A stretch of DNA of 64,000 bases from Candidatus Competibacteraceae bacterium (GCA_046347555.1 JAXMFY010000008.1:60022-124021), one strand, 5' to 3'. Positions 6,597 to 62,793 are shown, numbered from the stretch's first letter. Numbers and translations: made by a program. The notes: generated by a model not told the origin, from the letters alone.

Positions 6597-6668
6597 AGAC
6601 CATACGGTCGCCGACCTTTGCCAGACGGGCCGCTTCTCCAAGCCAACTTGCAAACGATTTGGACTTCT

Positions 6669-8048
6669 TCAAATCGCCGCGCTTGCGGCGAGGGGCAATG
6701 GCGACCCGACCACGGTCGGCGCCGGCAACCCGGCGGGCGGGCGCAAGGCGCCAGCGCGCAACTCGGCCAGCAGGGTTTCCCCTTCGGGCCAGGGTCCAAA
6801 CCCCGATTCGACGTTGATGTGGCCAGCCTGGCCGAGATTGACCAGGCGGCTGCCCCAGTGCTGGGCAAACCACTTCGCCCGCTCCAGTTCGAGGTGTGGA
6901 TCGTTCTCGCTGGCGACGAGGATGCTCGGGAATGGCAGGGGCCGCAGCGGCACCCCGTCGAAGAACGGACGGTGGTCGGTGTCGGCGGGCGCCACCAGCA
7001 AGGCCCCTCGGACATCGGCCCAGCGGCGCCTGGCCCACTCGGCGATGGTGATGCAGCCCAGGCTATGTCCAACCAGGATCACCGGACTGGGCGCGCGGCG
7101 GATTTCCCGATCCAGGGCCTCGACCCATTCGTCGACTTGCGGTTGGCGCCAGTTTCGCTGGCGGACCCGCCGGTACGCCGGGTGATCCCGACCCCACAAG
7201 GTTTGCCAGTGATCCGGCCCGGAGTCGCCCAAACCCGGCACGATGAGGACGGTGGTCTCCTCGACCGGATGGCGGACGCGATCCTGATAGCCGTCGGCGC
7301 CGACCCAACGGGCAATCTGAGCCTGATGCTCGGTGGCAACGCCAAGCAGAAACACCCGCGCGCCATGATTCTTGATCCGCTGGACGCGTTGGGCCAGTGC
7401 GCGCAGTTCGTCGGCGCTCATTTCCGCCGCTCGCAGATGCGAATAGCCCAGCTTGATGATATCCGGTTGCAAGGCCAGCGACCGATCCAGCTCGCTGGGA
7501 TCAACGCCGCGCTGGTGCAGGGCGATGCCGAAGCCCCGCGCCCGGAAACTGGCGATGGCCTGGACCAGGTGGCCACTATCCAGTACGACGGCTTCGGCGA
7601 TTTCCAGAACCACATCGCCCGGCGCCCGGCCGCAGTCGCGCAGAATACCCTCGAACACCGCTCCGTGATCGCCGGACACCCGGGCAATATGCCAGGGATG
7701 GACCTCCAGCAATAACAATCCGCTCAGCCGCCAGGCGGCGGCGTTAAGGACGTGCAGGGTGCGAACCAGGCGGTCGAGGTAAACGATGGAATCCTCGTCG
7801 AGGGCGACGGCGTAAGGCGCCCTAGGCGATACGCTATTGCCGCGCGGGCTGAAGGCGTGAAGCCAGGCCTGATAGCCGAGCACCTCATCCCCGGCATCCA
7901 GAAGCGCGTCGAAGACGCTCTCCAGCCGCATGCCGTAAAATCCGGCCACCACGGCGCCTTCTTCCAGGGCGAAGGGCGCCCGCGCGCCCGCCCAGGCCGC
8001 TTGTTGGAATTGCTGGTTGAAGTGGGCGACAAGCGGTGCGAGCGACAT
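6669..8048 (-). CDS. Fusion protein: degenerate (probably inactive) EAL-like domain plus a C-terminal YdeN/RBBP9-like alpha/beta serine hydrolase
   Basis: N-terminal half has EAL-domain topology (LLLEVHP, VVLEIAE, PDIIKLGYSHL, GVATEHQ...GYQD). It lacks the EAL and DDFGTG catalytic motifs: QAW replaces EAL, HQRG replaces DDFG. C-terminal half has GHSLG, D and H, typical of Ser_hydrolase PF06821. Confidence 0.5.
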   Translation of the reverse strand: MSLAPLVAHFNQQFQQAAWAGARAPFALEEGAVVAGFYGMRLESVFDALLDAGDEVLGYQAWLHAFSPRGNSVSPRAPYAVALDEDSIVYLDRLVRTLHVLNAAAWRLSGLLLLEVHPWHIARVSGDHGAVFEGILRDCGRAPGDVVLEIAEAVVLDSGHLVQAIASFRARGFGIALHQRGVDPSELDRSLALQPDIIKLGYSHLRAAEMSADELRALAQRVQRIKNHGARVFLLGVATEHQAQIARWVGADGYQDRVRHPVEETTVLIVPGLGDSGPDHWQTLWGRDHPAYRRVRQRNWRQPQVDEWVEALDREIRRAPSPVILVGHSLGCITIAEWARRRWADVRGALLVAPADTDHRPFFDGVPLRPLPFPSILVASENDPHLELERAKWFAQHWGSRLVNLGQAGHINVESGFGPWPEGETLLAELRAGALRPPAGLPAPTVVGSPLPLAASAAI

Positions 8049-8330
8049 GTTGATCTCCTCGATAAAAGCGGTTTCGGCAAGAAAAGTCAGAACCTTTCGC
8101 CGCCCGGCGTCATGCTCGTCACGCTGGCGCGCAACTCGCTTCCCGCCATCGTCAACAGTGTAGGAAGATCAAAATAAAATTAGAAAGAATAAAAAGATCA
8201 TTGGTTATTACCCATACATATTATTACCGGCCGGAGATTTCTCCGCGCGGTGACAAGAAAACCAGACGATGGGATTTGGCAAACCGCGCCTGACCGACCA
8301 CAGGGGAAATCTCACGAAGCCAAACGGATT

Positions 8331-10089
8331 TCACGACCTCTCGGTCCATGCTTTGACATATAACTCCTCCAGCGCCTGGGTGAATCCCGGTTCATCGCGC
8401 AGCGGCGAGGCGGCCACCCGATGACGGAGGTTGGCGCGCAGAGCGGCCAGGGTCGGGATATCCGTCGCCAATTCGGCCGCGACGCGCAGGTACTGGGCCT
8501 CGTCCCTGGCGATCAGTTGCTCCAGTCCAACGGCATGAAGCAGGCTGGATACCATTCTCCCCGCGTGGCTGCTCCCTTCCAGGGTGATGACCGGCGCCCC
8601 CTGCCAGAGGGCGCAACAGGCGAGGGTATGACCGCTCCACGGAAACACATCGAGGAAAATATCGATATCCTCGAACTGTTCGAAGAAGCTGCGGGTGGGA
8701 TCGTTCAGCGACCGCAACAGAAGCCGCCCAGGATCGATCCCCAAGGCCGCGAATGCCCCCTCCAGCCGCTGCTGGTGCCAAGCATCGATCTGGTCGCGGG
8801 CAATGAGCAGACGCGCGCCCGGGAGCGCCTGGAGCAGCCGGCTCCAAAGGCGAATCACCGCGGGGTTGATTTTCTCCAGCTTGTGCAAGGCGCCGAAAGT
8901 GACCTGGCCGGTCTTCGCCGCTGGCGCCGGGCTGACCGGGGGAGCATGGTCGGGGGGACGGAAACAGGCGAATAGCCGTGGCAATCGCAGCGGCGCTTCA
9001 CAACCGGGAAAACCCTCTCCCTCCGGCGCGGTGAACGCATCGACGATCCGATAATCCATCGCCGCGAGCCCGGTGGTGTTCGGGTAGCCCAGCCAACTGA
9101 TTTGCAACGGCGCCGGCTTGCGGGCAAAGAGCATGAGGCGGTTCTTTTCGGTGTGGCCGCCCAGATCCACCAGAATGTCCACGCGGTCCGCGCGGACCTG
9201 CTCGTCGAGACGGTGGTCGGACCAACCGGCGATGTCGCGCCATTGGTCGGCGAGACTTTTGAGCCGCGCCGTCACCGCATCCGGGCTCTCCACGTCGGAA
9301 TAACAGCAGATGCGAAAGCGCCGGCGATCGTGGTGGGCCAGCACCGGTTCGAAAAAGTAATTCACCGCGTGGGCGCGAAAATCCCGGGAAACGTAGCCGA
9401 TTCGCAGCAACCGGTCGGGTCGGCGGCTCGGATTTTTTCGAGGCGGCCTGGCGAGTTGGTCCAGGTGGCCACAGACCCGCCGGTGTTCGGCGGCCACTTC
9501 CCACGGGTCGAGTCCTGGAACCAGGTTCAGCAGGTAGAGCAGATTGTCCGCCGCGACTGGATAGTCGGGGCGGCGCTGGAGCGCCGCGCGAAAGGCGACG
9601 ATGGCGTCCTCCAGTCGCAACTGGTCGAACAACGCGCGCCCGAGATTGTAATGCGCTTCCGCCAGTCCCGGGGCCAACCGCGCGGCCGCCTCGGCATGGC
9701 GCAGCGCTGCCTCATGGGCGTGGATATCCCCGTAGGCGGCGCCAAGATTGAGATGGGCGCCGGCGTGATCGGGACGCAAGGCGAGAGCGACCTGCAACTG
9801 CTCGATCGCGGCCTGGGGCTCCCCAGCCCGGCGTAAGGCATCCCCCAGGTTACTGCGCAGCACCGGATTGTCGGGGACCAGGTCCACCGCGCGCCGAATA
9901 TAGGCCGCTCCCTCGGCGTGAGCGCCCTGCTGGTGGCGGACCAACCCGAACAGATGAAGCGCGTCGGGGTCCGCCGGCGACAATCGCAACACCCGTTCAT
10001 AGAGTTGCGCCGCCCGCGCCAATTCCCCCGCCTGGTGGAATTTTACCGCCGCCTGGAGAAGCGCCCGAGGATCGTTTACTGTTGGCACC
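8331..10089 (-). CDS. TPR-repeat protein with a C-terminal GT41 (O-GlcNAc transferase/SPINDLY-like) glycosyltransferase domain
   Basis: Several TPR units (AAQLYERVLRL..., AHYNLGRAL...), then the OGT-like catalytic region (RIGYVSRDF...WLGYPNTTG...). The listed 741-aa ORF has a junk N-terminus, so the start is set at a GTG near 10089. Confidence 0.6.
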
Positions 10090-10151
10090 GCCCTACCCCA
10101 TAAGCTCGCGAACGGAGCCGATTCTACTTCACTGGGACCACCAGACCGGAG

Positions 10152-11238: not shown

Positions 11239-12204
11239 ATGGCTGGCACCAGTCTGTTAGCTCTGATCGATGATATCGCCACCGTATTGGACGACGTGGC
11301 GCTGATGACCAAGGTGGCGGCGAGAAAGACCGCCGGCGTCCTGGGCGACGATCTGGCGCTGAACGCCGAGCAGGTCTCAGGGGTGCGCGCTGAGCGCGAA
11401 TTGCCGGTGGTGTGGGCGGTCGCCAAGGGCTCGATGAAAAACAAGCTGATCCTGGTCCCGGCGGCGTTGTCGATCAGCGCGGTCGCGCCGTGGGCGATCA
11501 CACCGTTGTTGATGGTGGGCGGCGCCTATCTGTGTTTCGAGGGCTTTGAAAAAGTTGCGCACAAATTCCTGTACGGCAAGACCGGCACGGATGCCGAGCA
11601 CGCCGCGACCGTCCAGGCGCTCAGCGACCCCGCCGTGGATCTGGTGGCGTTCGAGCGGGAAAAAATCCGGGGCGCGATCCGCACCGACTTCGTGCTCTCG
11701 GCGGAAATCGTCGTGATCGCCCTGGGCACCGTGCAAAATGCCCCCTTCTCGGTCCAGGTGGCCGTGATCGCCGGCATTGCTGTCCTCATGACGGTGGGTG
11801 TGTACGGCTTGGTGGCTGGTATCGTGAAGTTGGACGATGCGGGACTTCACCTCATCAAGGATGACGCGGCCCACGCCTGGGCCGGTTTCAAGCGCATCCT
11901 GGGCCGGGGCCTGTTGCGCGTCGCGCCGTATCTGATGAAAGCATTATCCGTCGTCGGCACGGCCGCCATGTTCATGGTCGGCGGTGGAATTCTGCTGCAT
12001 GGCCTGCCTTATTCCCATGCGGTGTTGCACCACGCGGAAGCCGCCGTTGGCGGCGTGCCCGGCATCGGCGGCGTGCTGGCGGCCCTCACTCCGATGTTGC
12101 TCAACCTGCTGGTCGGCATCATCGCAGGCGGGCTGACGCTGGTCGGCGTCAACAAAGCCACAGCTTGGCTTAGCAAGCGCGACCAACGGCCGGATTCGAC
12201 CTGA
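11239..12204 (+). CDS. DUF808 inner-membrane protein (YedI-like)
   Basis: N-terminus [21 protein letters not shown]...[14 protein letters not shown]...[13 protein letters not shown] is near-identical in pattern to E. coli YedI. Confidence 0.75.
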
Positions 12205-12213
12205 TCGCTCCCC

Positions 12214-12765
12214 ATGCCGACCGTTGCCCTGAGTTGTCATCCCGCCACGCCTTGCCCAGCCATCCGGCGCTTCACGGTCGAGGCTCATCGGACTCCCGCT
12301 GGATCGCTCGCGTTGCGCTACGTGATCGAGGGCGACTTGGCCGGCGTGCGCCTGCCCGACCCGCGCCCGTCGCGCCAAGCGGACGAGCTTTGGCGGCATA
12401 CCTGCTTTGAGGCGTTCCTGGCGGGAGGCGCCCACGCGGGTTATTATGAATTCAACTTCGCGCCATCGACTGAATGGGCCGTTTATCGCTTCACGGCGTA
12501 TCGAACGGGAATGACGGCTGTTGAACCGATCCCGCCACCCACCGTCACCTTGCGCGTTGGCGCGGATCGGCTCGAATTGGAAGCCGTGGTGGAGTTGGCC
12601 GAACTGACGAAGAAACCGGGCGGCGCGAAGTCGCGGCTGGCCTTGGCCGCCGTCATCGAGGCACAGAATGGTCAACGCTCGTATTGGGCGTTGCGGCACC
12701 CACCGGGGCCGCCGGATTTCCATCACCCCGACGGTTTCGCGCTCCCGCTCGATCCTTTCACCTGA
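12214..12765 (+). CDS. Hypothetical protein (183 aa). Start uncertain.
   Basis: ORF only. Confidence 0.3.
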   Translation: MPTVALSCHPATPCPAIRRFTVEAHRTPAGSLALRYVIEGDLAGVRLPDPRPSRQADELWRHTCFEAFLAGGAHAGYYEFNFAPSTEWAVYRFTAYRTGMTAVEPIPPPTVTLRVGADRLELEAVVELAELTKKPGGAKSRLALAAVIEAQNGQRSYWALRHPPGPPDFHHPDGFALPLDPFT

Positions 12766-12800
12766 CCGTGGAATTGACCTAACCGCAGGATGACCCCCCG

Positions 12801-14030
12801 ATGCAACCGATCCTCAAATCCGCCAAGCTCGCCAACGTTTGCTACGACATTCGCGGCCCGGTGCTGGCGCGCGCCAAGCAGATGGAAGACGAAGGGCAAC
12901 GGATCACCAAGCTCAACATCGGCAATCCGGCGCCGTTCGGCTTTCTGGCGCCGGACGAGATCGTCCAGGACGTGATCCACAATTTGCCAGACGCCTCCGG
13001 CTACTGCGATTCGAAAGGGCTGTTCGCCGCGCGCAAGGCGATCATGCACTACACCCAGCAAAAACAGATTCGCGGGGTGCAGGTCGAGGACATCTACGTC
13101 GGTAACGGCGTGTCCGAGTTGATCACGATGGCCTTGCAAGCCCTGCTCAACAACGGTGACGAGGTGTTGATTCCGGCGCCGGACTATCCGCTGTGGACGG
13201 CGGTGGTCAGCCTGTCGGGCGGCACCCCGCGCCACTATCTGTGCGACGAGCGGGCCGGCTGGTTGCCGGACCTGGATGATATCCGGGGCAAGATCACCCC
13301 GAACACCCGCGCCATCGTCGTCATCAACCCCAACAATCCGACCGGCGCGCTGTACCCGGCGGAGCTGCTGCGGGAAATTCTGGAGATCGCCCGCCAGCAC
13401 CAGCTCATCGTCTACGCCGACGAAATCTACGACAAGGTGCTCTACGACGGCGCCCAGCACACCTCCATCGCATCCCTGGCCGACGACGTGCTGTGCCTGA
13501 CCTTCAACGGCCTGTCGAAAAATTACCGGGCTTGCGGTTATCGCGCCGGCTGGGTGGTGGTGTCGGGCGAACGAAGTCATGCCCAGGATTACATCGAGGG
13601 CCTGACCATCCTGACCTCGATGCGGTTGTGCGCCAACGTCCCCGCCCAGTATGCGATTCAGACCGCGCTCGGCGGTTATCAGAGCATCGGCGATCTGGTG
13701 CTGCCCACCGGCCGGCTGGGCAAGCAGCGCGACCTGGCGTTCCAGTTGCTCACGGCCATTCCCGGCGTCAGTTGCATCAAGCCCCAGGCGGCGCTGTATC
13801 TGTTTCCGCGCCTCGACCCCAAGTTCTATCCCATTGCCGACGATCAGCAGTTCGTGCTTGAACTGCTGTTGGAGGAAAAGGTGCTGCTGGTGCAGGGCAC
13901 CGGCTTCAACTGGCCCCAGCCCGACCACCTGCGGATCGTGTTCCTGCCGCACGAGGACGACCTGGCGGACGCGATTGGGCGCCTCGGCCGCTTTCTGGAG
14001 CGTTATCACCGGCGCCATCACGGCGCGTGA
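12801..14030 (+). CDS. alaC: Class I/II PLP-dependent aminotransferase, AlaA/AlaC (YfbQ/YfdZ)-like alanine transaminase
   Basis: 409 aa with motifs KLNIGNPAPFGF, NPNNPTGALY and SKNYRACGYRAGW. Confidence 0.8.
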   Translation: MQPILKSAKLANVCYDIRGPVLARAKQMEDEGQRITKLNIGNPAPFGFLAPDEIVQDVIHNLPDASGYCDSKGLFAARKAIMHYTQQKQIRGVQVEDIYVGNGVSELITMALQALLNNGDEVLIPAPDYPLWTAVVSLSGGTPRHYLCDERAGWLPDLDDIRGKITPNTRAIVVINPNNPTGALYPAELLREILEIARQHQLIVYADEIYDKVLYDGAQHTSIASLADDVLCLTFNGLSKNYRACGYRAGWVVVSGERSHAQDYIEGLTILTSMRLCANVPAQYAIQTALGGYQSIGDLVLPTGRLGKQRDLAFQLLTAIPGVSCIKPQAALYLFPRLDPKFYPIADDQQFVLELLLEEKVLLVQGTGFNWPQPDHLRIVFLPHEDDLADAIGRLGRFLERYHRRHHGA

Positions 14031-14258
14031 CGGCCCCCGCCGGGCGCGTGCCCGCCCAGCCAAATCACCACGCGCCCGGCTTTCCGATTGATACCCACCC
14101 CTTCGTTGTCACCGCGCGGCGGGAACTCGCGTCCCGCCGCGCAATGTCGCGGGAACCGCGAAATAACATGGTTCCCCTTCGGCCCTCCCGTTTTACCTAA
14201 TTCGCCTCGATTACAATAAGTAATTGATTGGTATTTATTTATTTTTTGCACCGTGACT

Positions 14259-14273
14259 TGGCACGGGGTTTGA
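14259..14273 (+). promoter_or_regulatory. Weak sigma54-like -24/-12 element (TGGCACG-N4-TTGA) embedded in a CCGTG...CACGG palindrome. A possible IHF site (AATCAATTACTTA, minus strand) lies ~25 bp upstream.
   Basis: Sequence match except at -12, where GC is replaced by GA. Located ~200 nt upstream of bufA. Confidence 0.2.
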
Positions 14274-14471
14274 AATAGTTCACGCGGGTCACCGCCGCAG
14301 GTCGAAGCCCCCCGACAAACTCAACCTAGCGGGCTCGGATCGGTTCGGCGGTATATCCAGACGCGCCAGGGCAATTGGCCAAACCAGGTCGCCCGGCAAT
14401 CGCGGGGAGGTTACCTCCCGTAAATCGTTCAATGTCGTGAATTGTTGTCAACCCTGATAGGAGCCCTGCTC

Positions 14472-14738
14472 ATGAACAGCAAAACCCTCGTCAATTCCGC
14501 CCTCGCCAGCGTTTTCGCCCTGGGTCTGGTCGCCACCGCCGGTCAAGCCGTCGCCGCCGAGGAAAAGAACGCCGAAAAGTGCTACGGCATCGTCAAGGCC
14601 GGCAAGAACGACTGTCAAACCAGCGCGCACGCCTGCGCCGGCCAGGCCAAGAAGGATGGTCAGGGCGATTCCTGGGTCTATGTCCCCAAGGGCACCTGCG
14701 AAAAGATCGTCGGCGGCAGCTTGCAGCCGAAGGCCTGA
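14472..14738 (+). CDS. bufA: DUF2282 (BUF1-type bufferin) precursor peptide. Sec signal peptide plus four conserved Cys.
   Basis: GGAG RBS 7 nt before the ATG at 14472. Signal peptide ...ATAGQAVA|AEE. Mature region Cys in EKCYG, NDCQT, HACAG and GTCEK. Followed by DUF692, DUF2063 and DoxX. Confidence 0.7.
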
Positions 14739-14748
14739 GGCAATTCCG

Positions 14749-15624
14749 ATGACCACCAAGCCGGCCCTGTCCAGGCTTGGTCCCAGCTCGATTCCGGCTC
14801 GCGCCGGAATCGGCCTGCGGGCCGAACACTACGCCGCGGTTCTGGAAACTCCCCCGCCGGTCGGCTGGCTGGAGGTCCACAGCGAGAACTATTTTGGCGC
14901 CGGGGGCAAGCCCCTGGACTACCTGGAACGCATTCGCGCCCATTATCCCCTGAGCCTGCACGGCGTCGGGTTGTCCATCGGTTCGACCGATCCGCTCGAC
15001 CAGCGGCACCTCGCCAGTCTCAAGCATCTGATCCGGCGATTCGAGCCGGCGCTGGTTTCCGAACATTTGTCCTGGAGCTCGGTCGGTGGGCGTTATTTCA
15101 ACGACCTGCTGCCACTGCCCTACACCGAAGAAGCGCTTGACCACATGGTCGCGCGGGTGGCCCAGGTGCAGGACGTTCTCGGTCGGCAAATCCTGATCGA
15201 GAACCCGTCCAGCTATCTGCAATACGTCGATTCGGCCATTCCCGAAGGGGAGTTTCTGGTCGAATTGGCCGACCGTGCCGGCTGCGGCGTGTTGCTGGAC
15301 GTGAACAACATTTACGTCAGCGCCCGCAATCACGGCTTCGACGCCAGCGCCTATCTGCGGGCGATTCCGCGCCACGTCGTCCAGGAAATTCATCTGGCCG
15401 GATTTACGGTGAACCGGTTCGACGACGGTGAACTGTTGATCGACACCCACAACCGGCCGGTCTGGCCGGCGGTCTGGGCGCTTTACCGCGAAGCCGCGCA
15501 CCGCTTCGGCCCCATTCCGACGCTGATCGAGTGGGACACCGACCTGCCCGAACTGGCGGCGTTGGTGGACGAAGCGCATCGGGCCGACGCGATCCTGGAG
15601 GAACGTCATGCTCGGGCTGCGTGA
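14749..15624 (+). CDS. bufB: DUF692 / MNIO (multinuclear non-haem iron oxidative enzyme, MbnB-like)
   Basis: TIM-barrel xylose-isomerase-like DUF692 motifs (GIGLRAEHY...LEVHSENYF...SEHLSW...ENPSSY...EWD). Confidence 0.8.
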   Translation: MTTKPALSRLGPSSIPARAGIGLRAEHYAAVLETPPPVGWLEVHSENYFGAGGKPLDYLERIRAHYPLSLHGVGLSIGSTDPLDQRHLASLKHLIRRFEPALVSEHLSWSSVGGRYFNDLLPLPYTEEALDHMVARVAQVQDVLGRQILIENPSSYLQYVDSAIPEGEFLVELADRAGCGVLLDVNNIYVSARNHGFDASAYLRAIPRHVVQEIHLAGFTVNRFDDGELLIDTHNRPVWPAVWALYREAAHRFGPIPTLIEWDTDLPELAALVDEAHRADAILEERHARAA

Positions 15625-16390
15625 ACTGCAACTGGGTTTTGCCGCCGCGGTGCTGGACGGCGCCGAGGGCGATTTCGACCGCCACGTCCGGGCGGCCGGA
15701 CTGAGCGGCGCCCGTCGCCTGCAAGTCTACCGCAACAACGCCCTGCTGAGCCTGACCGGCGCGCTCGAAGCGGTTTATCCGGTGGCGCGTCGCGTGGTCG
15801 GGGATGGGTTCTTTCAATATGCGGCGGCGCAATACATCGCGCGCCATCCGTCCCGTTCGGGTGATTTGCACGCATTCGGCGAGCATTTCCCAGCGTTTCT
15901 TGAGTCGTTCGCGCCGGCCGCCGATCTGGTTTACCTGCCCGATGTCGCCCGGCTGGAATGGGCGTATCACCGGGCTTTTCACGCCGCCGATCATCGGCCG
16001 CTCGATGTGGCGGCCTTGGCGCGCGTGCCCGCCGAGCGACAAGGCGATCTGCGGTTCGAACTTCATCCCGCCACCCGCCTGCTGGAATCGGCCTTTCCGA
16101 TCCTGCGGATCTGGCGGGTCAACCAGGACGATCACGACGGTGATTCGACGGTGGATTTGAGCGAAGGCGGCGTCAAGCTGCTGATCGTCCGCCGCCAGAA
16201 TCTGGAGATCGAGTTTGAACCCCTGGAGGACGGGGAATTCGCTCTGCTGCGCGCCCTGGCCGGAGATTGCGACTTCGTCACGGCCTGCGAACGGGCGATG
16301 ACCGAGCAACCGACGCTCGATTTGCCAGCCTGCGTTCAACGGCATGTTTCCCAAGGCGTCCTGGTCGCCTTTCACCTGCCAGGTTCTTGA
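15608..16390 (+). CDS. bufC: DUF2063 MNIO partner protein (MbnC-like)
   Basis: 260 aa. Overlaps the bufB stop by 17 nt. Typical N-terminal region LQLGFAAAVLDG...RLQVYRNN. Confidence 0.7.
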   Translation: MLGLRELQLGFAAAVLDGAEGDFDRHVRAAGLSGARRLQVYRNNALLSLTGALEAVYPVARRVVGDGFFQYAAAQYIARHPSRSGDLHAFGEHFPAFLESFAPAADLVYLPDVARLEWAYHRAFHAADHRPLDVAALARVPAERQGDLRFELHPATRLLESAFPILRIWRVNQDDHDGDSTVDLSEGGVKLLIVRRQNLEIEFEPLEDGEFALLRALAGDCDFVTACERAMTEQPTLDLPACVQRHVSQGVLVAFHLPGS

Positions 16391-16426
16391 TCAACCGACT
16401 GATTTCAACCACCCGAGGAGAACCTC

Positions 16427-16981
16427 ATGATGACCGCCACCGACATGCTCGATAACCCACCCCAGCGTTCGTTCTGGGCGAAACTCGCTCCCGCGCTCAA
16501 AAAAGCCGACGCCTTGTTCCACAAAGCGGCCGATTGGCTGACGCCCGTCGCCGATTTGCTGGCCCGCTACTGGGTCGCCGCCGCGTTTTTCGGTTCGGGG
16601 CTAACCAAGACCGTCACCGGCAGCTTCACGCTGTTCGGGCAGACCTTCACCTACCCGCTGAGCGTGTTTCCGGCGGAGAGCACCTTCACGCTGTTTGAAT
16701 ACGAGTACCACGTGCCGCTGCTCCCGCCGATGCTGGCGGCCTATCTGGGGACGGCGGCGGAGTTGCTGTTGCCCGTCTTTCTGTTGCTGGGGCTCGGAAC
16801 CCGCTACGCCGCGTTCGCACTGTTCGTGTTCAACATCATGGCCGTCGTTTCCTATCCGGACCTGATGGAGGCGGGGTTGAAGGATCATCAGGTTTGGGGA
16901 TTGCTGCTGTTGATCACGCTCTGCCATGGTCCCGGCAAACTGTCCATGGATCATCTGATCGGCCGCCTGGTTCGCCGCTGA
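16427..16981 (+). CDS. bufD: DoxX-family membrane protein
   Basis: Four TM helices with DoxX pattern. Last gene of the buf-type operon. Confidence 0.7.
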   Translation: MMTATDMLDNPPQRSFWAKLAPALKKADALFHKAADWLTPVADLLARYWVAAAFFGSGLTKTVTGSFTLFGQTFTYPLSVFPAESTFTLFEYEYHVPLLPPMLAAYLGTAAELLLPVFLLLGLGTRYAAFALFVFNIMAVVSYPDLMEAGLKDHQVWGLLLLITLCHGPGKLSMDHLIGRLVRR

Positions 16982-17020: not shown

Positions 17021-17605
17021 ATGAATAATCCCGCTCAACTTGTCGGCGAGGACGCAGTGACCTCCGTGGTCGCTCCATCGGATTTTCCAGCGGCCGAGGA
17101 GGTTGAATTGCTGTGGCGAATCGGCCTGTTTACCTCGGACGACGAACGGGTCTTGCGGAAGCTTTGGCGGATTTTAAAGGGACAGACCGACGATTATCTG
17201 GACATGGTGCTTGGCATGGTGGCCGCCTATCCGACGCTGGCGGCGGCCTGCCAGGAAAGCCTGGGGAGTTCGGTGGACGGTTCGGCGGTCGTTCGCCCTC
17301 TGTTTCGAGAGTGGCTGTTCGAAACCTGTCTGACCCCGCGTGAGCCATCCTGGCTCAAGCGGCTGTATTCGCTGTGTTCCGATCCTTCATCGGAACGGCC
17401 GATGCAAACCCTGTTGGCGAAACTGCCGGGGTTTCGCTATCTCATCGCCCTGTCTTTTCCGCTGGTCGCTACCCTGCGTTCTCTGTTGGTTGGCGTGGGT
17501 CTCGCGCATCAGGACATCGAACGGATGCAGTCGGCGCTCCTGAAGGCAATCCTCCTGCAAGTGGCCCTGTTGAGTAAGTTTTATGTCAAGGAGGGAATTT
17601 GGTGA
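17021..17605 (+). CDS. Protoglobin / globin-sensor-like domain protein (tentative)
   Basis: 194 aa, all-helical. Weak resemblance to sensor-globin/protoglobin folds. No confident motif. Confidence 0.3.
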   Translation: MNNPAQLVGEDAVTSVVAPSDFPAAEEVELLWRIGLFTSDDERVLRKLWRILKGQTDDYLDMVLGMVAAYPTLAAACQESLGSSVDGSAVVRPLFREWLFETCLTPREPSWLKRLYSLCSDPSSERPMQTLLAKLPGFRYLIALSFPLVATLRSLLVGVGLAHQDIERMQSALLKAILLQVALLSKFYVKEGIW

Positions 17606-17833
17606 CGATGGCTCCATGAAAAATCCGACTGACTATCCAATGAATGGGTTCCAGTTTTCTGTGAATGGCGATTTTTGTTGATGGATAGTGTTTCCGACGT
17701 GGATAACCAAATTCCGAGGCCCCCGATGATCGAGAGCTTGACGGAGACGATATCCACGTCCGAAGCGCTACCGCCAAGCGGGCGGCGGCATGATCACCCA
17801 TGATTCGAATCCTTTTAAAGTGAGGCACTTGCA

Positions 17834-18073
17834 ATGAAAACCTTGACCAAACTGACCGTAACCTTGCTAACCAGCCTAGCCCTGAGCGCGGCGTTCGCCC
17901 AAGGCTTCAACATGAAGACGGCGGAAATGATGGACGAAAACCATGATGGCATGATTACCAAGGAGGAGTACATGAAACACAGCAAAGACATGGCGGCTTT
18001 TGACAAGATGGATACCAACAAGGATGGGGTACTAGATGCGAATGAAATCAGGATTGGTTTTAACCAGAAATAA
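17834..18073 (+). CDS. Secreted EF-hand calcium-binding protein (79 aa)
   Basis: Signal peptide, then two canonical EF-hand loops: DENHDGMITKEE and DTNKDGVLDANE. Confidence 0.65.
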   Translation: MKTLTKLTVTLLTSLALSAAFAQGFNMKTAEMMDENHDGMITKEEYMKHSKDMAAFDKMDTNKDGVLDANEIRIGFNQK

Positions 18074-18136
18074 CTCCAGCCATCGCTCAACGCCATTGGA
18101 GTTGTTTCCAAAAAATCGGCAATAGCAGGCTAGAAT

Positions 18137-18172
18137 GGAGTGGAATAGCACCACTCCATTTCTTTGTTTTTG
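18137..18172 (+). terminator. Rho-independent terminator after the EF-hand gene
   Basis: GGAGTGG-aatagca-CCACTCC followed by ATTTCTTTGTTTTTG. Confidence 0.45.
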
Positions 18173-18416
18173 TCATTAACCTTCCATCCGTTGCCTTTTG
18201 GCATTCAATGTCGCATCTGTCAATCTTCCGAAGCATCCATCGTGACTGGTGCTATGGAATTAAGTTCCACCCGCCAGGATCAGTCGCGACAAACCCCGCT
18301 TGGGCTTGAATAAAGACATCGTGGGTAAATCGTGGAACCCGTCGTAATTGGATCGAAAATAGCCGCGAAACCTGCTATACCTGATTTCAGCAGCTCTTCT
18401 CAAAAGGACCCTGGGC

Positions 18417-20384
18417 ATGAATGAAACCGTTTCACAGCCCGCTGATAGACGATCCGCCTCACGAAGCGACCCCGCGTTCCTGCCTCCAGACGAGCGGGAC
18501 GTCATGCATGTGGCCTTGCGTTCCATCGTCGAAGGCACGGCCACCGCCACGGGCACCGAGTTCTTCCATGCGCTGGTGCGAGAACTGGCGCAGGCACTAA
18601 ACGTGCGCCATGCCTTCGTGAGCGAACTCCTTGAAAGCAGGACGCGCGTGCGCACATTGGCGTTCTGGTTCGGTGGCAAACCCACCGACAACATCGAATT
18701 TGACCTGGACGGTACGCCTTGCGAAGTCGTCATTCGCGGCGAGACGGTGTATTACACGCACAAGGTTTACGACGAATTTCCCCAAAACCTCTATCTCAAA
18801 CAGGCGGGCATCGAGAGCTATTTCGGCGTGCCGCTGGTGTCCGAGTCGGGCAACGAAATGATGGGTCACCTGGCCGTGGAGCACGACCAGCCGATGGCCA
18901 AGGAATTTCGAGGAATGTCGCTCCTGCGCATTTTCGCCACCCGCGCCCGGGTCGAACTGGAGCGCAAGCGCGCCGAGCAGGCGCTGCGTAAAAGCGAGGA
19001 GCGATTGGCCAGCATACTGGCCAGCGCCATGGATGCGATCATCGCTCTCGACGCCGAGCAGCGCATCACCTTATTCAATTCCGCTGCCGAAAAGGTATTC
19101 CGCTGCCAGGCGGCCCACGCCATCGGCCAGTCGTTCGAGCCGTTGCTTTCCAAGCGCTTCGGCAATCTGCTCAAGGGTTATTGCTTGGCGGTCCAGCCCG
19201 CCACGGTCAATTCGCGGCAGCTTTGGGCGCCCGAGGGGCTGACCGCCCGTCGCCGTGACGGCGAGGAGTTTCCGGTGGAAGCCACGATCTCTCCCCTGGA
19301 GATCGACGGTCGACGATTCTTCACCGTGATTCTGCGGGACGTGACCGAGCGCTGGCGGTCCGAGGAAACCCTCAAGCAGTTGCAACTGGAAAACGTCTAT
19401 CTTCAGGAAGAGATCAAGACCCGGCAAAGCCCCGGCCACATCGTCGGCGATTCACCGGCCATGCAAGATGTATTCGCTCACGCCGAACAGGTGGCGGGCA
19501 CCGATTCCACCGTACTGTTGACCGGGGAGACCGGCACCGGCAAGAGCGTCATCGCGCGGGCGATTCACGACTTGAGCGACCGGCGGGACAAGCTGTTCGT
19601 GCCCGTCAATTGCGCCGCCCTGCCGGGTGATTTGGTGGAAAGCGAGTTGTTTGGCCACGAGAAGGGCGCGTTCACCGGCGCGATTGCCCAACGCAAGGGT
19701 CGTTTCGAACTGGCTGACGGCGGCACCTTGTTCCTGGACGAAGTCGGCGAGATGAGCGCCGGCGCCCAGGCCAAGCTGTTGCGGGTGTTGCAGGATCAGG
19801 AATTCGAGCGAGTGGGTGGCACTCAGACCTTGAAGGTCAATGTCCGGCTCGTCGCCGCCACCAACCGCGATTTGGCCCGAATGGTTAAGGAAGGCGGCTT
19901 TCGTGCCGATCTGTATTATCGGCTGAACGTATTTCCCATTCGTCTGCCGTCCCTGTGCGAGCGTTCGACCGACATTCCGTTGCTGGCCCGGTTTTTCCTG
20001 GACAAGTTCACGCGGAAGATGGGCAAGTCGATTCACGATCTCTCGCCCAGGGCAAGCGAGCGGCTCCTGCGTTACTCGTGGCCCGGCAATATCCGGGAAT
20101 TGCAAAACGTGATCGAGCGCGCAGCCATTCTGACCCGTGGTTCCCTGCTGGAAATCGACAACGCGCTCGAACTTCGTTTGGAAGATCAGGAAACCAAGAG
20201 CGCTCCCGAACAATGGGTATCCTTCGAGGAGATGGAACGGGCTTATCTCCTCAAGGTATTGGAGCGCACGCGCTGGGTGATCGAGGGCGAGCAAGGCGCG
20301 GCGGCGATCCTGGATATGAATCCCAGCACCCTGCGTTCGCGGATGCAAAAACTGAACATCCGCAAACCAAAAACTCTCCCCTGA
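18417..20384 (+). CDS. Sigma54-dependent transcriptional activator (GAF + PAS + AAA+ sigma54-interaction + Fis-type HTH)
   Basis: GAFTGA motif, Walker [24 protein letters not shown], and a C-terminal HTH. N-terminal GAF and PAS regions. Confidence 0.85.
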
Positions 20385-20656
20385 GTTAAATCCTATCCCG
20401 CTCCCTCGGCTATCGGTCTTTGACCGGTCGCTTTTACCGCTTCTTCCCATTCCCACGCTCCAGCGTGGGAATGCCGTCAGCAAGGCCGTCACCAAGCCAT
20501 CGGCGGCAATCCTCTTTGAATCATGACGATAACCCGCCGCGTCATTCAGCGGCCTTGCGATATATCGTGGGATCGATTGCTCTTTCAATTGGCCACGATT
20601 GAGGGGAAATAATTTAAATTATTGATATTCAACATAATATTTCGATTTTTCCGTAG

Positions 20657-20672
20657 TGGCACGGACATTGCT
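20657..20672 (+). promoter_or_regulatory. Sigma54 promoter, -24/-12 element TGGCACGGACATTGCT
   Basis: Exact GG-N10-GC with consensus context TGGCACG-N4-TTGC. Sits in an AT-rich leader 56 nt upstream of the 20728 start, directly downstream of the sigma54 activator gene. Confidence 0.6.
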
Positions 20673-20727
20673 GGATAAGGATCGACAAACGATGTCATCC
20701 CTAAACCAGCCAATGAGGAGTTACCCC

Positions 20728-21123
20728 ATGAACAAGACCATCGCGACCACCCTGTTGATTCTGGCTTCCGGCCTGACCCTGAGCACGACCGCGCTGGCGG
20801 AGCCTTTCAATCGCAGCGGTTCCCATGTGAACGCCATCAGCAATGCTCATTCCAGCACTAATACTCCGAGCGTACAGAGTGTTCGGCAAACCGACATGCT
20901 GGCGACGGTCGGCGGTTTCAACGATCGGACTGAATACGAGGTGACCACGGTCAATTCCAGTCCCGTTGTCGAATCTTCTCTTTCCAGAATGCTATCGATC
21001 ATTACGCGCGGATTTAATGATCGCGGTAAATGCCGACAGGCCGAGATCGCCCGCCGAGTTTTCCAGCACGGACGACTTGGCGGCGACTCGATCATTCATC
21101 GCGTTTCATTGGGTATGAGGTGA
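20728..21123 (+). CDS. Small secreted protein of unknown function (131 aa). Signal peptide and a repeated GFNDR motif.
   Basis: ORF with N-terminal signal peptide MNKTIATTLLILASGLTLSTTALA, immediately downstream of the sigma54 promoter. Confidence 0.45.
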   Translation: MNKTIATTLLILASGLTLSTTALAEPFNRSGSHVNAISNAHSSTNTPSVQSVRQTDMLATVGGFNDRTEYEVTTVNSSPVVESSLSRMLSIITRGFNDRGKCRQAEIARRVFQHGRLGGDSIIHRVSLGMR

Positions 21124-21343
21124 TGTCATGCGCCAGCCATCTGTTTCCGCTCCCACCGATGCCACTCAGATTTATTCAAGGAAATGGAGAATAGGGGGCG
21201 TGGTGAGTTTGGATTTATCACCCGCCTTGCTCAGCCTGGCCGCTCGAAATAAAACCAAGTTGTTTCCGTTGCGTCCCCCGGCGGTCAAGACCGCCTTGTC
21301 CCCTTGAATCATTCCTTAAATCCTTGCCTTAGGGAGAATCCCC

Positions 21344-22165
21344 ATGTCGACAAACCATGCTTGCGATCCCGTTCTGAAAGACCAGCGCGCCCTGGTGACC
21401 GGCGCCAGTTCCGGTATTGGCGCGGCCATCGCCAAGGCGTTGGCGGCGGCTGGCGCGAAAGTCGTCGTCAACTACGCCGGTGGCGCGGACCGGGCGCACG
21501 CCGTGGTCGAACACATCCGGGCGGCTGGCGGCGAAGCAATGGCGATTCGCGCCGACGTGAGCCGGGAAGACGAGGTCGAAGCCATGTTTGCCCAGATGAT
21601 CGAGACCTGGGGCAGCATCGATATCCTGGTCAACAACGCTGGCCTGCAAAAGGATGCCCCCCTGGTCGAAATGAGCCTGGCCGACTGGCAAAAGGTTCTC
21701 GACATCAATCTGACCGGTCAATTCCTGTGCTCCCGCGCCGCCGTGCGTGAATTCCTGCGGCGCGGCGTCGTGCCGGAACTGTCGCGCGTCGCCGGCAAGA
21801 TCATCTGCATGTCCTCGGTCCACGATGTCATTCCTTGGGCCGGACACGCCAACTACGCCGCGTCCAAGGGCGGCGTCAGCCTGTTGATGAAGACCATGGC
21901 CCAGGAACTCGCGCCACGCTGCATCCGAGTCAACGCCATCTCGCCCGGCGCGATCAAGACCCCGATCAATACCGCCGCCTGGATGACGCCCGAAGCCGAG
22001 GCGGAACTGCTGAAGCTGATTCCCTGTCGTCGGGTCGGGGAGCCGGAGGACATCGCCCGCGCCACCGTGTGGCTGGCCTCCGATGCGTCCGATTACGTCA
22101 CCGGCGCCACTTTGTATGTGGACGGCGGCATGACCCTGTATCCGGGTTTCGATCAGGGGGGCTGA
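21344..22165 (+). CDS. SDR-family oxidoreductase (glucose-1-dehydrogenase-like)
   Basis: TGASSGIG Rossmann motif, NNAG, and catalytic S...YxxxK (YAASK). Confidence 0.8.
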   Translation: MSTNHACDPVLKDQRALVTGASSGIGAAIAKALAAAGAKVVVNYAGGADRAHAVVEHIRAAGGEAMAIRADVSREDEVEAMFAQMIETWGSIDILVNNAGLQKDAPLVEMSLADWQKVLDINLTGQFLCSRAAVREFLRRGVVPELSRVAGKIICMSSVHDVIPWAGHANYAASKGGVSLLMKTMAQELAPRCIRVNAISPGAIKTPINTAAWMTPEAEAELLKLIPCRRVGEPEDIARATVWLASDASDYVTGATLYVDGGMTLYPGFDQGG

Positions 22166-22166
22166 T

Positions 22167-23214
22167 ATGAAGCGGATCGTAGCGCGCCATGCCATTGCCC
22201 TGCGGGTGGTGGTGTTGGGCCTGTGTCTGGTCCAACAAACCGGGCTTGGGCCGCTGGCGAGCCGGAACGCCGACCCGTTCGGATTCTCGCGCTGACCGCA
22301 CCGGCTTGCCCACCGACGTACAGCCCTGGTGGCCAAGCCGCTATGGCGCGGACGATCAGCTCGGTACTTCAACGAAATTACGCCTGAAGTGGCGCGAGCA
22401 GCGGCCGCTCTGGTGAAAACCGGAACCGTCGTCGATCTGGGTCGGGTGCTGGATGACGACACGCCCAAGTTTCCCGGCCGCTACTGGCACCAGACCGTCG
22501 ATGTTTCGCCTCATTTCACCAACCTGCGCCGCCCGGATGTCGATGGCAAGGGCTGGGGCAAGAACCAGATCAACTGGATTACCGAGATTCAGGTGGGTAC
22601 CTTCCAGGTCGGCACCCAACTGGATTCCATCGGCCACATCCAGATCGGCGACCGGTTCTACAACGGCTGGACCACGCGCGACGTGGTGGAGTCGTGGGGC
22701 CTGAATCGCTTCGGCACCGAAACCGTGCCGCCCATCGTCACCCGGGGCGTGCTGATCGACATCGCCGCTTACAAGGGCGTGGAGCGCCTGGCCAAGGGTT
22801 ATGTGATCACCCTGGCCGACGTGCAAGGCGCGTTGAAAAAGCAGGGCGTTAGCCTGCAGGCCCGGCGATGCGGTGCTGTTTCACACCGGTTGGGGCGGGC
22901 TGGGGCAAGGACAACGCCGAATTTCTTCCGGCGAGCCCGGTCCCGGCCTGGAGGTCGTGAACTGGCTGTACGCGCAACGCATCGCGCTGACCGGCGCCGA
23001 CACCTGGAGCTACGGACCGGTGCCCGGCGAAGACCCGGAACGTCCCTTCCTGGTGCCACAGACCATGTACGTGAAGATGGGATTGTTTGGCCTGGAGAAT
23101 CTGGCGACCGAAGAGCTGGCGCGGCGCGGCGTCCACGAATTCCTGTTCACCCTCACCCATGCCAAGACCCGCGGCTCGACGGCGGCGGTCATCGCCCCGG
23201 CGGCGGTTTATTGA
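22167..23214 (+). pseudogene. Cyclase-family (kynurenine-formamidase-like, PF04199) gene disrupted by two or more frameshifts
   Basis: Homologous segments sit in different frames: signal-peptide-like MKRIVARHAIALRVVVLGL... ending at a TGA; then WWPSRYGADDQLGT; then FNEITPEV...KKQGVSLQ; then PGDAVLFHTGWGG...GADTWSYGP. Apparent 1-nt indels near 22368 (T-run) and 22857 (extra G). Confidence 0.5.
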
Positions 23215-23229
23215 GAAGGAAACACCACC

Positions 23230-24672
23230 ATGAACGAACGCTATGACGCCCTCATCGTCGGTTCCGGCGCGGGCGGATCGGCGGCGGCTTACGCTTTGGC
23301 GCGGGCTGGTCGCCGGGTGCTGCTGCTGGAAAAGGGGCGGGAACTCCCGCGCGACGGCAGCACAATGGACGTGGACAAGGTGATCCGGCAAGGGATTTTC
23401 AAGAGCAAGGAGCACTGGCTCGACAAGAACGGCCGAACCTTCGAGCCGGAGGAATATTTCAATCTGGGCGGCAAGACCAAGTGGTACGGGGCGGCCCTGG
23501 CCCGATTTGAACCGCACGAGTTCGAGGCCGAACCGGCGCATCAATGCTTGCCTTGGCCGATGTCGTATCGGGAATTGCTGCCTTACTACGAGCAAGCGGA
23601 AACTTTGCTGAGCGTCCATCAATTCGAGCCGGAGCCAGATCTGCAAGCCATTGTTGGCAAGTTGACCCGCAACGGCGCCGGCTGGAACGCCCGACCCCTG
23701 ACGCTGGCGCTGGATTCCAGCATCGTCGAACATCCCGAGGAAGCCGCGCACTTCGACGCCTTCGCCTCGGTCAAGAACCTGAAAGCTGACGGCCAGCACG
23801 CTTTGTTGGAGCGGGTTCAACATCGGCCCAACCTCACCATCCTGACCGGGCAGGCGGTACGCGATTTCGTCGCCGACCCCGAGCGGCCTGAGCGGTTACT
23901 CGGCGTTCGCACCGAGAGTGGCGACGAATTCGAGGCCAATACGGTGTTGCTGGCGGCGGGAGCGTTGCACTCGCCGCGTTTGTTGCAAGGCTATCTGAGC
24001 CGCAGCGGTCTGGCCGAGAAGCTGCCGTGCGCTGACGCGGTGGGACGCAATTACAAATGCCACCTGCTCAGCGCCGTGTTGGCCTTTTCCGCTACCCCCA
24101 AGACCGACCTGCTGCGGAAGACTCTGTTGCTGTTGAACGACCGGTTGCCGCACAGCAGTATTCAGCCCCTGGGTTTCGATGGTGAACTGCTCAGCACCCT
24201 GATTCCGGGGTTCGTGCCACGCGGGTTCGCCCGTGCCCTCGGCCATCGCGCCTACGGTTTCTTCTTGCAGACCGAGGACGGTTCCGATCCCGCCAACCGC
24301 GTCGTCGCCCAGACCAACGGCGCCCGCTATCCCCAGCTCGACTACGATCCCGCGCGCTTGCCAGCGGCCCGTGAGGAGCATCGGCGGCTGGTGCGCGACT
24401 TCAATCGCTCGCTGTGGAAAATCGGTCTGCCGGCGGCGGCCAAGGGGATTCCGCTGGCCGGTACCGCGCACGCCTGCGGCACGCTGGTCGCGGGCAGCGA
24501 TCCCCGCACCTCGGTGGTGGACGCCGATGGCAAGGTACACGGCCTAGACAACTTGTACGTGGTGGACGGCAGCGTGCTGCCGCGTTCCAGCCGGGTCAAT
24601 CCGTCGCTGACCATCTACGCCTGGGCGTTGCGGGTGGCGGAGCGGTTGCAACAAGGAGAGCGGCCGGCATGA
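23230..24672 (+). CDS. GMC-family FAD-dependent oxidoreductase
   Basis: N-terminal DALIVGSGAGGSAAAYALA FAD motif. C-terminal GTAHACGT...NLYVVDGSVLP GMC signature. Confidence 0.75.
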   Translation: MNERYDALIVGSGAGGSAAAYALARAGRRVLLLEKGRELPRDGSTMDVDKVIRQGIFKSKEHWLDKNGRTFEPEEYFNLGGKTKWYGAALARFEPHEFEAEPAHQCLPWPMSYRELLPYYEQAETLLSVHQFEPEPDLQAIVGKLTRNGAGWNARPLTLALDSSIVEHPEEAAHFDAFASVKNLKADGQHALLERVQHRPNLTILTGQAVRDFVADPERPERLLGVRTESGDEFEANTVLLAAGALHSPRLLQGYLSRSGLAEKLPCADAVGRNYKCHLLSAVLAFSATPKTDLLRKTLLLLNDRLPHSSIQPLGFDGELLSTLIPGFVPRGFARALGHRAYGFFLQTEDGSDPANRVVAQTNGARYPQLDYDPARLPAAREEHRRLVRDFNRSLWKIGLPAAAKGIPLAGTAHACGTLVAGSDPRTSVVDADGKVHGLDNLYVVDGSVLPRSSRVNPSLTIYAWALRVAERLQQGERPA

Positions 24673-26762: not shown

Positions 26763-26941
26763 CTTTTTCCTTGGAGATTGGAAAATTCCGCCTAGGCCAT
26801 CTTCGGCAGATAGCCGAATTTGCGCGGGGTTGCCTGATCCAGCGCGGTGCGTGACGTTGCACCGCGAGGGCTTCGTAATCGACCGTGGAATCCTGGTAAG
26901 GCACCTGGCGCGACAGCAACACGAACACTGTCTTGAGGACT

Positions 26942-53701: not shown

Positions 53702-53783
53702 AATTCACTCCTCATCAAGCGGCCCAACCTATTTGGGCGCGAATCAAGGTTCAAGGCCGAAGGTTATCAAGGTTACCACTCTC

Positions 53784-55604: not shown

Positions 55605-55765
55605 GCAAAGCCAGGGCTCCTTGACCGGGCGGGTTTCGCTCGGGCTTGTAAGAAAATTCAATCCTCCAAGTAAAAAGCCTCTCTCCCACGCGGGAGAGAG
55701 GCAAAGGGGTGGGAGTCATTTTCCCACCGACCTGCCATACCAGGGTATGGCAGGACCATCAACGC

Positions 55766-57882: not shown

Positions 57883-62793
<4,911 letters not shown>

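Follow-up and report, generated by a model that had tools for sequence, protein, structure and literature searches.

Within a stretch of 64,000 nucleotides (nt) from a Candidatus Competibacteraceae bacterium (GCA_046347555.1 JAXMFY010000008.1:60022-124021), a compact group of four genes raises the questions of what peptide it makes and what signal calls for its production. The whole stretch is referred to as the window, and all positions are counted from its first letter. An initial annotation, made by a model from the DNA, had described the region as a complete operon for a bufferin, a copper-binding metallophore belonging to the peptides made on the ribosome and modified after translation (RiPPs). 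With good confidence we assign the group to the bufferin biosynthetic gene clusters (BGCs) of the BUF1 type (BufA1), with a copper-chelating periplasmic peptide carrying thiooxazoles at Cys20 and Cys27 as its predicted product and with sigma-54 control of the operon as the most likely regulation. Judged by sequence, the gene cluster itself is an ordinary and intact BGC of this type in which every defining feature that can be read from the DNA is present, and it adds one more member to a well-populated and already named family.

The four open reading frames (ORFs) lie on the plus strand between 14472 and 16981 in the order bufA-bufB-bufC-bufD. The first, bufA (14472-14738), encodes an 88-residue precursor of the BufA1/DUF2282 family (Pfam DUF2282, E 4.8e-26). 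It is followed by bufB (14749-15624), which encodes a 291-residue maturase of the TIM-barrel multinuclear iron oxidase (MNIO) family (Pfam MbnB_TglH_ChrH, E 6.5e-111), and by bufC (15608-16390), which encodes a 260-residue partner protein of the PME1 type made up of a DUF2063 domain and a region resembling a RiPP recognition element (RRE; Pfam DUF2063, E 6.2e-24). The last gene, bufD (16427-16981), encodes a 184-residue DoxX-family membrane protein with hydrophobic segments present (Pfam DoxX, E 1e-13). Chance is excluded, because four consecutive strong family matches stand in the canonical order. A gap of 10 nt separates bufA from bufB, bufB and bufC overlap by 17 nt, and 36 nt lie between bufC and bufD. 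The complete operon in tight, partly overlapping order that had been claimed is therefore what the family profiles and distances give; its start had been placed at 14200, a position that proves to belong to the promoter region and to precede the ATG of bufA by 272 nt. The A-B-C-D order is kept in most of 80 genome loci (numbered with the prefix L where they are singled out below), and bufD directly follows bufC in most related loci. The closest genome matches to BufB are metagenome-assembled genomes of Ca. Contendobacter/Competibacteraceae, at 85-86% identity, and no second copy of bufA or bufB is present within the window. Public databases already recognise the family: in current Pfam, PF10048 is called 'BufA1' and PF09836 'HvfC_N', and an 82%-identical homologue carries the NCBI name 'BufA1 family periplasmic bufferin-type metallophore'.

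The precursor has the features expected of an exported bufferin. The ATG of bufA stands eight bases after AGGAG (14459-14463), and BufA matches PF10048 with 90.9 bits against a cutoff of 22.4, covering profile positions 2-53 of 53. A signal peptide (14472-14555) is predicted by inspection from an N-terminus made up of MNSK, a 20-residue hydrophobic stretch and the junction of AVA with AEE, which places Ala at -3 and -1; homologues have the same layout. The remaining 60-residue core (14556-14735) contains exactly four Cys, at core positions 9, 20, 27 and 48, in agreement with the Sec-signal DUF2282 peptide with four spaced Cys that had been described. The Cys register had also been named as a point to check, and the spacing found, 11/7/21, is the commonest in the family. 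It is common to 117 of the 120 closest database homologues and to 46 of the BufA sequences of 69 loci, the others including 11/9/21 (14 loci), 11/9/22 (4) and 11/8/21 (3). Caulobacter Buf1, with which the register was compared on published Cys positions, has its Cys at core positions 12/23/31/52, a spacing of 11/8/21 (PMC11626156). The two peptides thus differ in the distance from CysII to CysIII, 7 here and 8 there, and in core length, 60 residues here and 68 there.

BufB was compared with models for the individual MNIO groups, and these comparisons also bear on whether the locus could belong to another MNIO RiPP class, such as Buf2/BUF_6/12Cys, the oxazolins (HvfABC, with EGKCG repeats) or methanobactin. 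The NCBIfam equivalog NF050167 (MNIO_BufB) recognises BufB with 406.7 bits against a cutoff of 310, and the protein stays under the cutoffs of the HvfB (246.5 against 360), MbnB (66.1 against 325), ApyH and ChrH models. The precursor matches DUF2282/BufA1 end to end, has four Cys and not six, and lacks EGKCG repeats. What can be cited in favour of another class is that NCBIfam models for BufA2 (score 35.6, cutoff 60), HvfB, HvfC and HvfX match weakly and below threshold, as expected of related families. A different class is extremely improbable, and at the sequence level a non-BUF1 assignment is refuted.

The loss of iron-ligand His, Asp or Glu residues, which had been put forward as a sign against an MNIO, is not seen in BufB. 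Nine putative metal-site residues, H71, H106, E151, D184, N187, H215, D232, H234 and E261, are invariant among 39 homologues of 52-86% identity. A profile search of the PDB, in which 3BWW is the closest entry (E 2.4e-69), pairs them with MbnB H54, H90, E133, D163, N166, H192, D208, H210 and E239, and these MbnB residues are the reported ligands of Fe1-Fe3 (PMC9060507). The pairing of E261 with E239 comes from the 7DZ9 and 3BWW alignments and involves the E-x-D motif that contains E239; in the 7TCR alignment, which follows the published numbering, E239 is set against D263 where the local alignment ends, and E261 and D263 are both invariant. In HvfB, the N/D/H equivalents of site 3 are essential (10.64898/2026.07.17.739211).

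The partner protein BufC is less readily placed by sequence. The Pfam domain covers only its N-terminal third, and the NCBIfam HvfC model matches residues 35-234 below threshold (E 1.7e-13). A phmmer search of the PDB with BufC found no match, and its profile gave only a marginal one, to 3DEE (E 0.36). An AlphaFold model based on 44 homologues has a mean predicted local distance difference test score (pLDDT) of 89.7 and consists of a helical N-domain followed by a C-terminal domain of a beta-sheet and three helices. When this model was used in a Foldseek search, the only significant PDB matches were 3DEE (E 1.3e-5) and TglI, entries 8HCI_A/8HI7_A (E about 1e-5). The former is NGO1945, a solved MNIO partner of the PME1 type, and TglI is the partner of the MNIO TglH. 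Because the model's only significant matches are MNIO partners, BufC counts, on its predicted structure, as a genuine MNIO partner belonging to the DUF2063 plus RRE type found in bufferins and captophorins (PMC11626156; PMC13097082). The public annotation of the protein encoded at 15608-16390, 'DNA-binding domain-containing protein', is an outdated name inherited from DUF2063.

The chemistry of such a cluster has been worked out in Caulobacter, where BufB and BufC are necessary and sufficient for the conversion of CysII and CysIII to 5-thiooxazoles, with a change of -4 Da each (PMC11626156). CysI and CysIV of Caulobacter Buf1 form a disulfide, its signal peptide directs Sec export, and DoxX is dispensable for the modification (PMC11626156). 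The resulting bufferin is a ligand of both Cu(I) and Cu(II) and lets cells grow better when copper is a stress (PMC11626156), and the 5-thiooxazole assignment for this enzyme group is backed by later work (PMC13097082). The initial annotation had attributed the demonstration of thiooxazole formation to both Caulobacter and Bordetella; this is correct for the former, and for Bordetella the source mentions only an operon regulated by BvgAS (PMC11626156). It had also spoken of conversion of the Cys residues in general, which is right for the two central Cys and wrong for CysI and CysIV, as these form a disulfide in the characterised Buf1 (PMC11626156).

By analogy, BufA would be made as an 88-residue precursor. 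BufC would hold the iron enzyme BufB on this substrate in the cytoplasm, where BufB would convert core Cys20 and Cys27 to 5-thiooxazoles (-4 Da each) in an O2-dependent reaction. The peptide would then be exported through Sec and cut by signal peptidase after AVA, and a disulfide between Cys9 and Cys48 would form in the periplasm. DoxX, frequent in clusters of this kind but not essential to them, would be a conserved accessory. The calculated monoisotopic mass of the core is 6251.03 Da unmodified and 6240.95 Da for the predicted mature form, a difference of -10.08 that reflects thiooxazoles at Cys20 and Cys27 together with the Cys9-Cys48 disulfide. Once in the periplasm, the 60-residue product would chelate copper and perhaps further soft metals.

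Several characterised systems share parts of this design. The closest is buf1 of Caulobacter vibrioides (CCNA_03363-03366; PMC11626156), with the same four families in the same order, a Sec-signal four-Cys DUF2282 precursor and DoxX last. The gig operon of Cupriavidus metallidurans, named for gold-induced genes, and its homologues in Legionella and Bordetella, now regarded as bufferin BGCs (PMC11626156), are of the same four-gene type. The oxazolin of Haemophilus influenzae (HvfABC), fontiphorin and the 'captophorin' class (PMC13097082, PMC11252979) likewise combine an MNIO with a PME1 partner, often with DoxX, and have a Sec-signal precursor, 5-thiooxazoles and a link to copper. The oxazolin and fontiphorin precursors, however, contain repeats (EGKCG or Cys-Lys) in which many Cys are modified, whereas BufA here is a folded four-Cys DUF2282 domain. 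Methanobactin, made by MbnABC, depends on a homologous iron enzyme with the same ligand set that oxidises Cys to give a copper ligand, but it contains oxazolone/thioamide pairs, its leader is not a Sec signal, its product is secreted for copper uptake instead of buffering the periplasm, and its partner protein, MbnC, is different.

The 440 nt considered upstream of bufA, together with a gene further downstream, bear on how production of the peptide may be controlled. The bufferin reading of the initial annotation stood but was incomplete, in that it overlooked a sigma-54/enhancer architecture and three further conserved genes. A sigma-54 promoter-like element, TGGCAC-GGGGT-TTGA, lies at 14259-14273 on the plus strand, 213 nt upstream of the bufA ATG. 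At 14217-14229 on the minus strand, 42 nt upstream of the -24 element, is a consensus site for integration host factor (IHF), AATCAATTACTTA, which equals WATCAANNNNTTR. A candidate enhancer, or upstream activating sequence (UAS), is found at 14137-14160 on the plus strand, 122 nt upstream of the -24 element, where CCGCG-CAATGT-CGCGG (14137-14152) overlaps CGCGG-GAA-CCGCG. A second promoter of the same design occupies 20555-20671 on the plus strand and consists of the UAS TTGCGATATATCGTGG (20555-20570), an IHF site on the minus strand (20615-20627) and TGGCAC-GGACA-TTGC (20657-20671). The latter is a perfect consensus, and its distance from the IHF site is again 42 nt.

These elements are rare in the window and conserved outside it. 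The pattern TGGCAC-N5-TTGM has only two matches in the 64 kb, at 14259 and 20657. The IHF consensus has three matches where 0.66 are expected, and two of the three lie exactly 42 nt upstream of TGGCAC-N5-TTGM sites. The pattern YYGCGNNWTNTCGYGG, which was derived post hoc, occurs twice with an expectation of 0.17, and palindromes of the form YYGCG-N6-CGYGG, also a post hoc pattern, are placed 122 nt upstream of the bufA promoter and 102 nt upstream of the second. A simpler enhancer motif, CGCGGNAACCGCG with mismatches allowed, was rejected as no commoner than chance, and only exact, conserved sites were used. In alignments with L001-L003, the palindrome is the most conserved intergenic block, and palindrome, IHF site and promoter form conserved islands in an otherwise diverged alignment of three related species. 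The same palindrome is present at -121 to -123 in 9 Competibacteraceae loci, the IHF site is found again at -40 to -43 in related loci, and the sigma-54-like element is kept in L001-L003, L081 and L083-L096. Units of palindrome, IHF site and promoter at the same distances occur in a dozen further Competibacteraceae loci, and within this group the layout persists down to 49% identity of a neighbouring protoglobin-like protein. In Methylomonas (L034), CCGCGAAATATCGCGG is found at -102 and an IHF site at -42, upstream of TGGCAC-N5-TTGC. The second promoter is kept in L001, L084, L088, L092 and L096.

The long 5' leader of bufA contains no known RNA element in Rfam. About 100 nt of it, 14345-14450, are not found in L001-L003 and bring the leader to about 190 nt. 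This insertion, which includes the hairpin GGGAGGT-T-ACCTCCC, matches nothing in Rfam, and no other copy of it is present in the window.

A candidate regulator of the operon is encoded at 18417-20384 on the plus strand, three genes downstream of bufD. It is a sigma-54 activator, or bacterial enhancer-binding protein (bEBP), of 655 residues with GAF, PAS, AAA+ and helix-turn-helix (HTH) domains (Pfam Sigma54_activat, E 2e-73; GAF, PAS and HTH_8), and it has the GAFTGA motif. Its GAF domain contains an invariant Cys (in GTPC) and an invariant His (in GHL). The whole arrangement resembles classical sigma-54 and IHF promoters such as nifH with NifA and Pu with XylR, which likewise have a UAS about 100-120 bp upstream, IHF in between, -24/-12 elements and a GAF-containing AAA+ activator with GAFTGA. 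It differs from them in its target, here a RiPP metallophore operon, and in an activator for which no NCBIfam equivalog reaches its cutoff.

The pairing of activator and operon recurs in other genomes. The sensor region of the activator is orthologous (E 1e-39 to 1e-43) to that of activators adjoining buf1 in two Methylomonas species and one uncultured gammaproteobacterium (L014). A sigma-54-like element is present 85-145 nt upstream of bufA in all 6 genome loci with the activator and in 4 of 55 without it (Fisher p 3.8e-6). In a metagenome scan, buf genes and then a protoglobin-like gene precede the activator in each of the 10 loci of close relatives that extend far enough upstream; bufABCD is present in 8 of these loci, and the contig begins inside bufB or bufC in the other 2. 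Taken on this sequence evidence, bufABCD is most likely sigma-54-dependent and activated by the adjoining GAF-PAS bEBP. Transcription would start from the sigma-54 promoter with the help of IHF and the palindromic enhancer, upon activation by the enhancer-binding protein encoded downstream, and the same activator would probably drive the second promoter.

Sigma-54 control appears, from the sequence comparisons, to be the one previously unreported feature, the regulators described so far being copper-responsive. Published neighbourhood tables give NrsF/extracytoplasmic function (ECF) sigma, PhoB-like and CopS-like regulators. Among the matches listed in a full-text literature search, no paper linked bufferin, DUF2282 or DUF692 loci to sigma-54, and the supplements of two published bufferin/MNIO gene-neighbourhood surveys contain no such term. 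Where this locus has a sigma-54 promoter and a GAF-PAS activator, Caulobacter buf1 has the ECF sigma SigF with NrsF. For the gig, Legionella and Bordetella operons, transition metals are the inducers or BvgAS the regulator, and no regulator of that kind was found in the scanned flanks here.

A number of observations weigh against a copper bufferin under sigma-54 control as set out here. Both the formation of thiooxazoles and the binding of copper are proposed only from homology to Caulobacter buf1. The -24 element of the bufA promoter is perfect, but its -12 element reads GA and not the canonical GC, and the enhancer consensus was obtained post hoc. No rpoN is found among the annotated ORFs of the window, the scope of that search. 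In the 64 loci of distant activator relatives (L099-L162, 38-51% identity), buf genes do not lie beside the activator, with one possible exception. Finally, no copper-responsive regulator of the ECF sigma/NrsF or CopRS type, a typical though not a defining neighbour of BUF1 clusters, is present among the flanking ORFs scanned (11239-14030 and 17021-26762).

The departure at -12 raises the question of whether the bufA element is a promoter at all. The activator might control only the second promoter, a perfect consensus, and bufABCD might have a promoter of the sigma-70 or ECF type that went unrecognised; the 213 nt between the bufA element and the ATG in this window are also a long distance. 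Yet no sigma-70-like site is found on the plus strand of the region upstream of bufA, and many species share the TTGA variant, an IHF site at -42 and a palindrome at -122. The GA variant is present in all Competibacteraceae loci, and the Methylomonas loci, like the second promoter, have TTGC. Moreover, neither L081 nor the Methylomonas loci have a second promoter of this type, which leaves the bufA promoter as the sole candidate target there. A non-functional bufA element is quite unlikely.

The distant activator relatives bear on specificity. As they do not adjoin buf genes, the activator family is not bufferin-specific, and the idea of a dedicated bufferin regulator was rejected, the link to buf being confined to close relatives, Methylomonas and L014 in the metagenome scan. 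The genes that these distant relatives most often adjoin encode an OsmC-like peroxiredoxin (13 loci), an AurF-like di-iron protein (9) and a STAS-ECF sigma protein (9). One of the 64 loci, L100, contains on its minus strand (6661-7758) weak MNIO-like and DUF2063-like matches (E 5e-7 and 1e-14), divergently oriented from a 51%-identical activator relative at 8005-10128. A further MNIO cluster controlled by this regulator family is a possibility here.

The lack of a copper-responsive regulator among the scanned flanking ORFs makes the link to copper weaker than in Caulobacter. The 'copper' label of the initial annotation was carried over from that organism, and nothing among these ORFs is specific to copper. 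It is possible, though less likely, that the same cluster and chemistry serve another role, namely a response to an oxidant, to redox state, to O2 or to another metal, sensed through the GAF-PAS activator and perhaps with the protoglobin homologue described below, in which case copper would be at most one ligand. The regulators in published co-occurrence tables are those absent from the scanned flanks, and sigma-54 activators are not among them. The OsmC-like peroxiredoxin genes beside distant activator relatives and the invariant Cys and His of the GAF domain point the same way, and both give a hint, though a speculative one, that redox or thiol stress is the activator signal. Elsewhere, gold and cadmium are among the metals to which gig/buf operons respond (PMC11626156). 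Against this stands the fact that all thiooxazole peptides studied so far, Buf1, Buf2, fontiphorin and oxazolin, bind copper or protect against it (PMC11626156, PMC13097082). The oxidant and copper readings are not mutually exclusive, because copper stress itself brings thiol and oxidative stress.

The copper bufferin under sigma-54 control remains our preferred reading, and it extends to genes beyond bufD. At 17021-17605 on the plus strand, 40 nt after bufD and with no terminator-like site between, is a gene for a 194-residue, cytoplasmic protoglobin homologue (Pfam Protoglobin, E 1.7e-9) that lacks the proximal His. It is probably co-transcribed with bufABCD. The family profile matches the protoglobin of Methanosarcina acetivorans (PDB 2VEB) with E 1.9e-30 at 28-30% identity, and a Foldseek comparison gives a globin fold (E 7e-6, template modelling score 0.66). 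The two proteins are homologous, but the proximal (F8) His120 of 2VEB has no counterpart and aligns to a variable, His-free segment of the homologue. Among 39 sequences of the family no His is invariant, and Cys103 is nearly so. Canonical haem ligation by this protein is unlikely, because the proximal His is without a counterpart and no other His is invariant. Wherever the sequence of a Competibacteraceae locus extends far enough, the gene comes after bufD, also where identity is down to 49% and the flanking genes differ. All of its 83 database matches have at least 49% identity, and those named to organism are all assigned to Competibacteraceae, Competibacter or Contendobacter or carry a broader label.

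The next gene, at 17834-18073 on the plus strand, encodes a secreted EF-hand-pair protein of 79 residues without Cys (Pfam EF-hand_5, E 1.7e-11). It is found at the same place in L003, L081, L083-L085, L089, L093 and L098. MNIO substrates with a fused EF-hand domain have been described, EfhP being one (PMC12452194); the EF-hand protein here is the product of a separate gene and contains no Cys. It is weakly lanmodulin-like by NCBIfam (E 5.8e-8, 32.9 bits, below the cutoff of 135). A terminator-like hairpin on the plus strand (18133-18161), with an 11-bp stem followed by the T-run CTTTGTTTTT, is likely the end of a transcript that would probably run on from bufABCD through the protoglobin homologue and the periplasmic EF-hand gene. 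These further conserved downstream genes set the locus apart from Caulobacter buf1.

Behind the second promoter, a gene at 20728-21123 on the plus strand encodes a secreted protein of 131 residues that has two GFNDR motifs and matches nothing in Pfam or NCBIfam. Equivalent promoters precede its homologues in L001, L084, L086, L088, L090, L092 and L096, and up to two or three such units of promoter and GFNDR gene are present per locus (L092, L096). In L081, the seven-gene module is flanked by genes unlike those of the window, with molybdoenzymes of the xanthine dehydrogenase (XDH) type upstream and DUF2252, NifB-like and NifQ genes downstream, and a transposase gene (DDE_3/HTH_33; 8622-9650) is inserted between the protoglobin-like and EF-hand genes. 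As the flanks of L081 differ completely from those of the window, the module behaves as a unit.

A bolder proposal, which we consider unlikely but worth stating, takes these genes together. A bufferin operon may have been recruited into a sigma-54 regulon in the Competibacteraceae and, independently, in Methylomonas, with the protoglobin homologue acting as a co-sensor or anti-activator in the manner of NifL with NifA. The metallophore would then be made on a redox, O2 or thiol-stress signal and not on copper itself, and the same regulon would export the EF-hand and GFNDR proteins. If true, this would amount to a coordinated periplasmic metal or stress programme, new for bufferins.

Other features of the window lie apart from this module. 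A glycogen debranching enzyme (GDE_N/GDE_C) and a glycoside hydrolase of family GH57 are encoded at 24414-28354, which fits the genome of a glycogen-accumulating member of the Competibacteraceae. The sole radical S-adenosylmethionine (rSAM) gene found in the window, at 53382-54932 (516 residues, Pfam E 7.9e-8), is 36 kb from the operon and is presumably the 'rSAM locus' that the initial annotation had listed as another RiPP system. It is followed by two ORFs without a family match (55083-55604 and 55709-57136). On the minus strand, 57883-62793 encodes a 1636-residue hybrid protein in which a CheR methyltransferase is joined with several PAS domains and with histidine kinase and receiver domains.

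There are thousands of bufferin clusters, and about half of the reference genomes of Pseudomonadota contain them (PMC13097082); as such, the operon contributes little to a family that is numerous and already recognised by Pfam and NCBI. It does document an intact BUF1 system in the Competibacteraceae, glycogen accumulators of wastewater plants, a setting where copper and other metals matter. The regulatory module is of somewhat more, if modest, interest. The sigma-54/IHF/enhancer design, the link to the GAF-PAS activator and the protoglobin homologue without a haem ligand are well supported by the sequence comparisons, and they point to a lineage-restricted protein, lacking the haem-binding His, that is always linked to the operon. 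A regulatory design as concrete as this one, with its enhancer palindrome, IHF site, sigma-54 promoter and GAF-PAS activator, could show which signal, copper aside, prompts a cell to make a bufferin.

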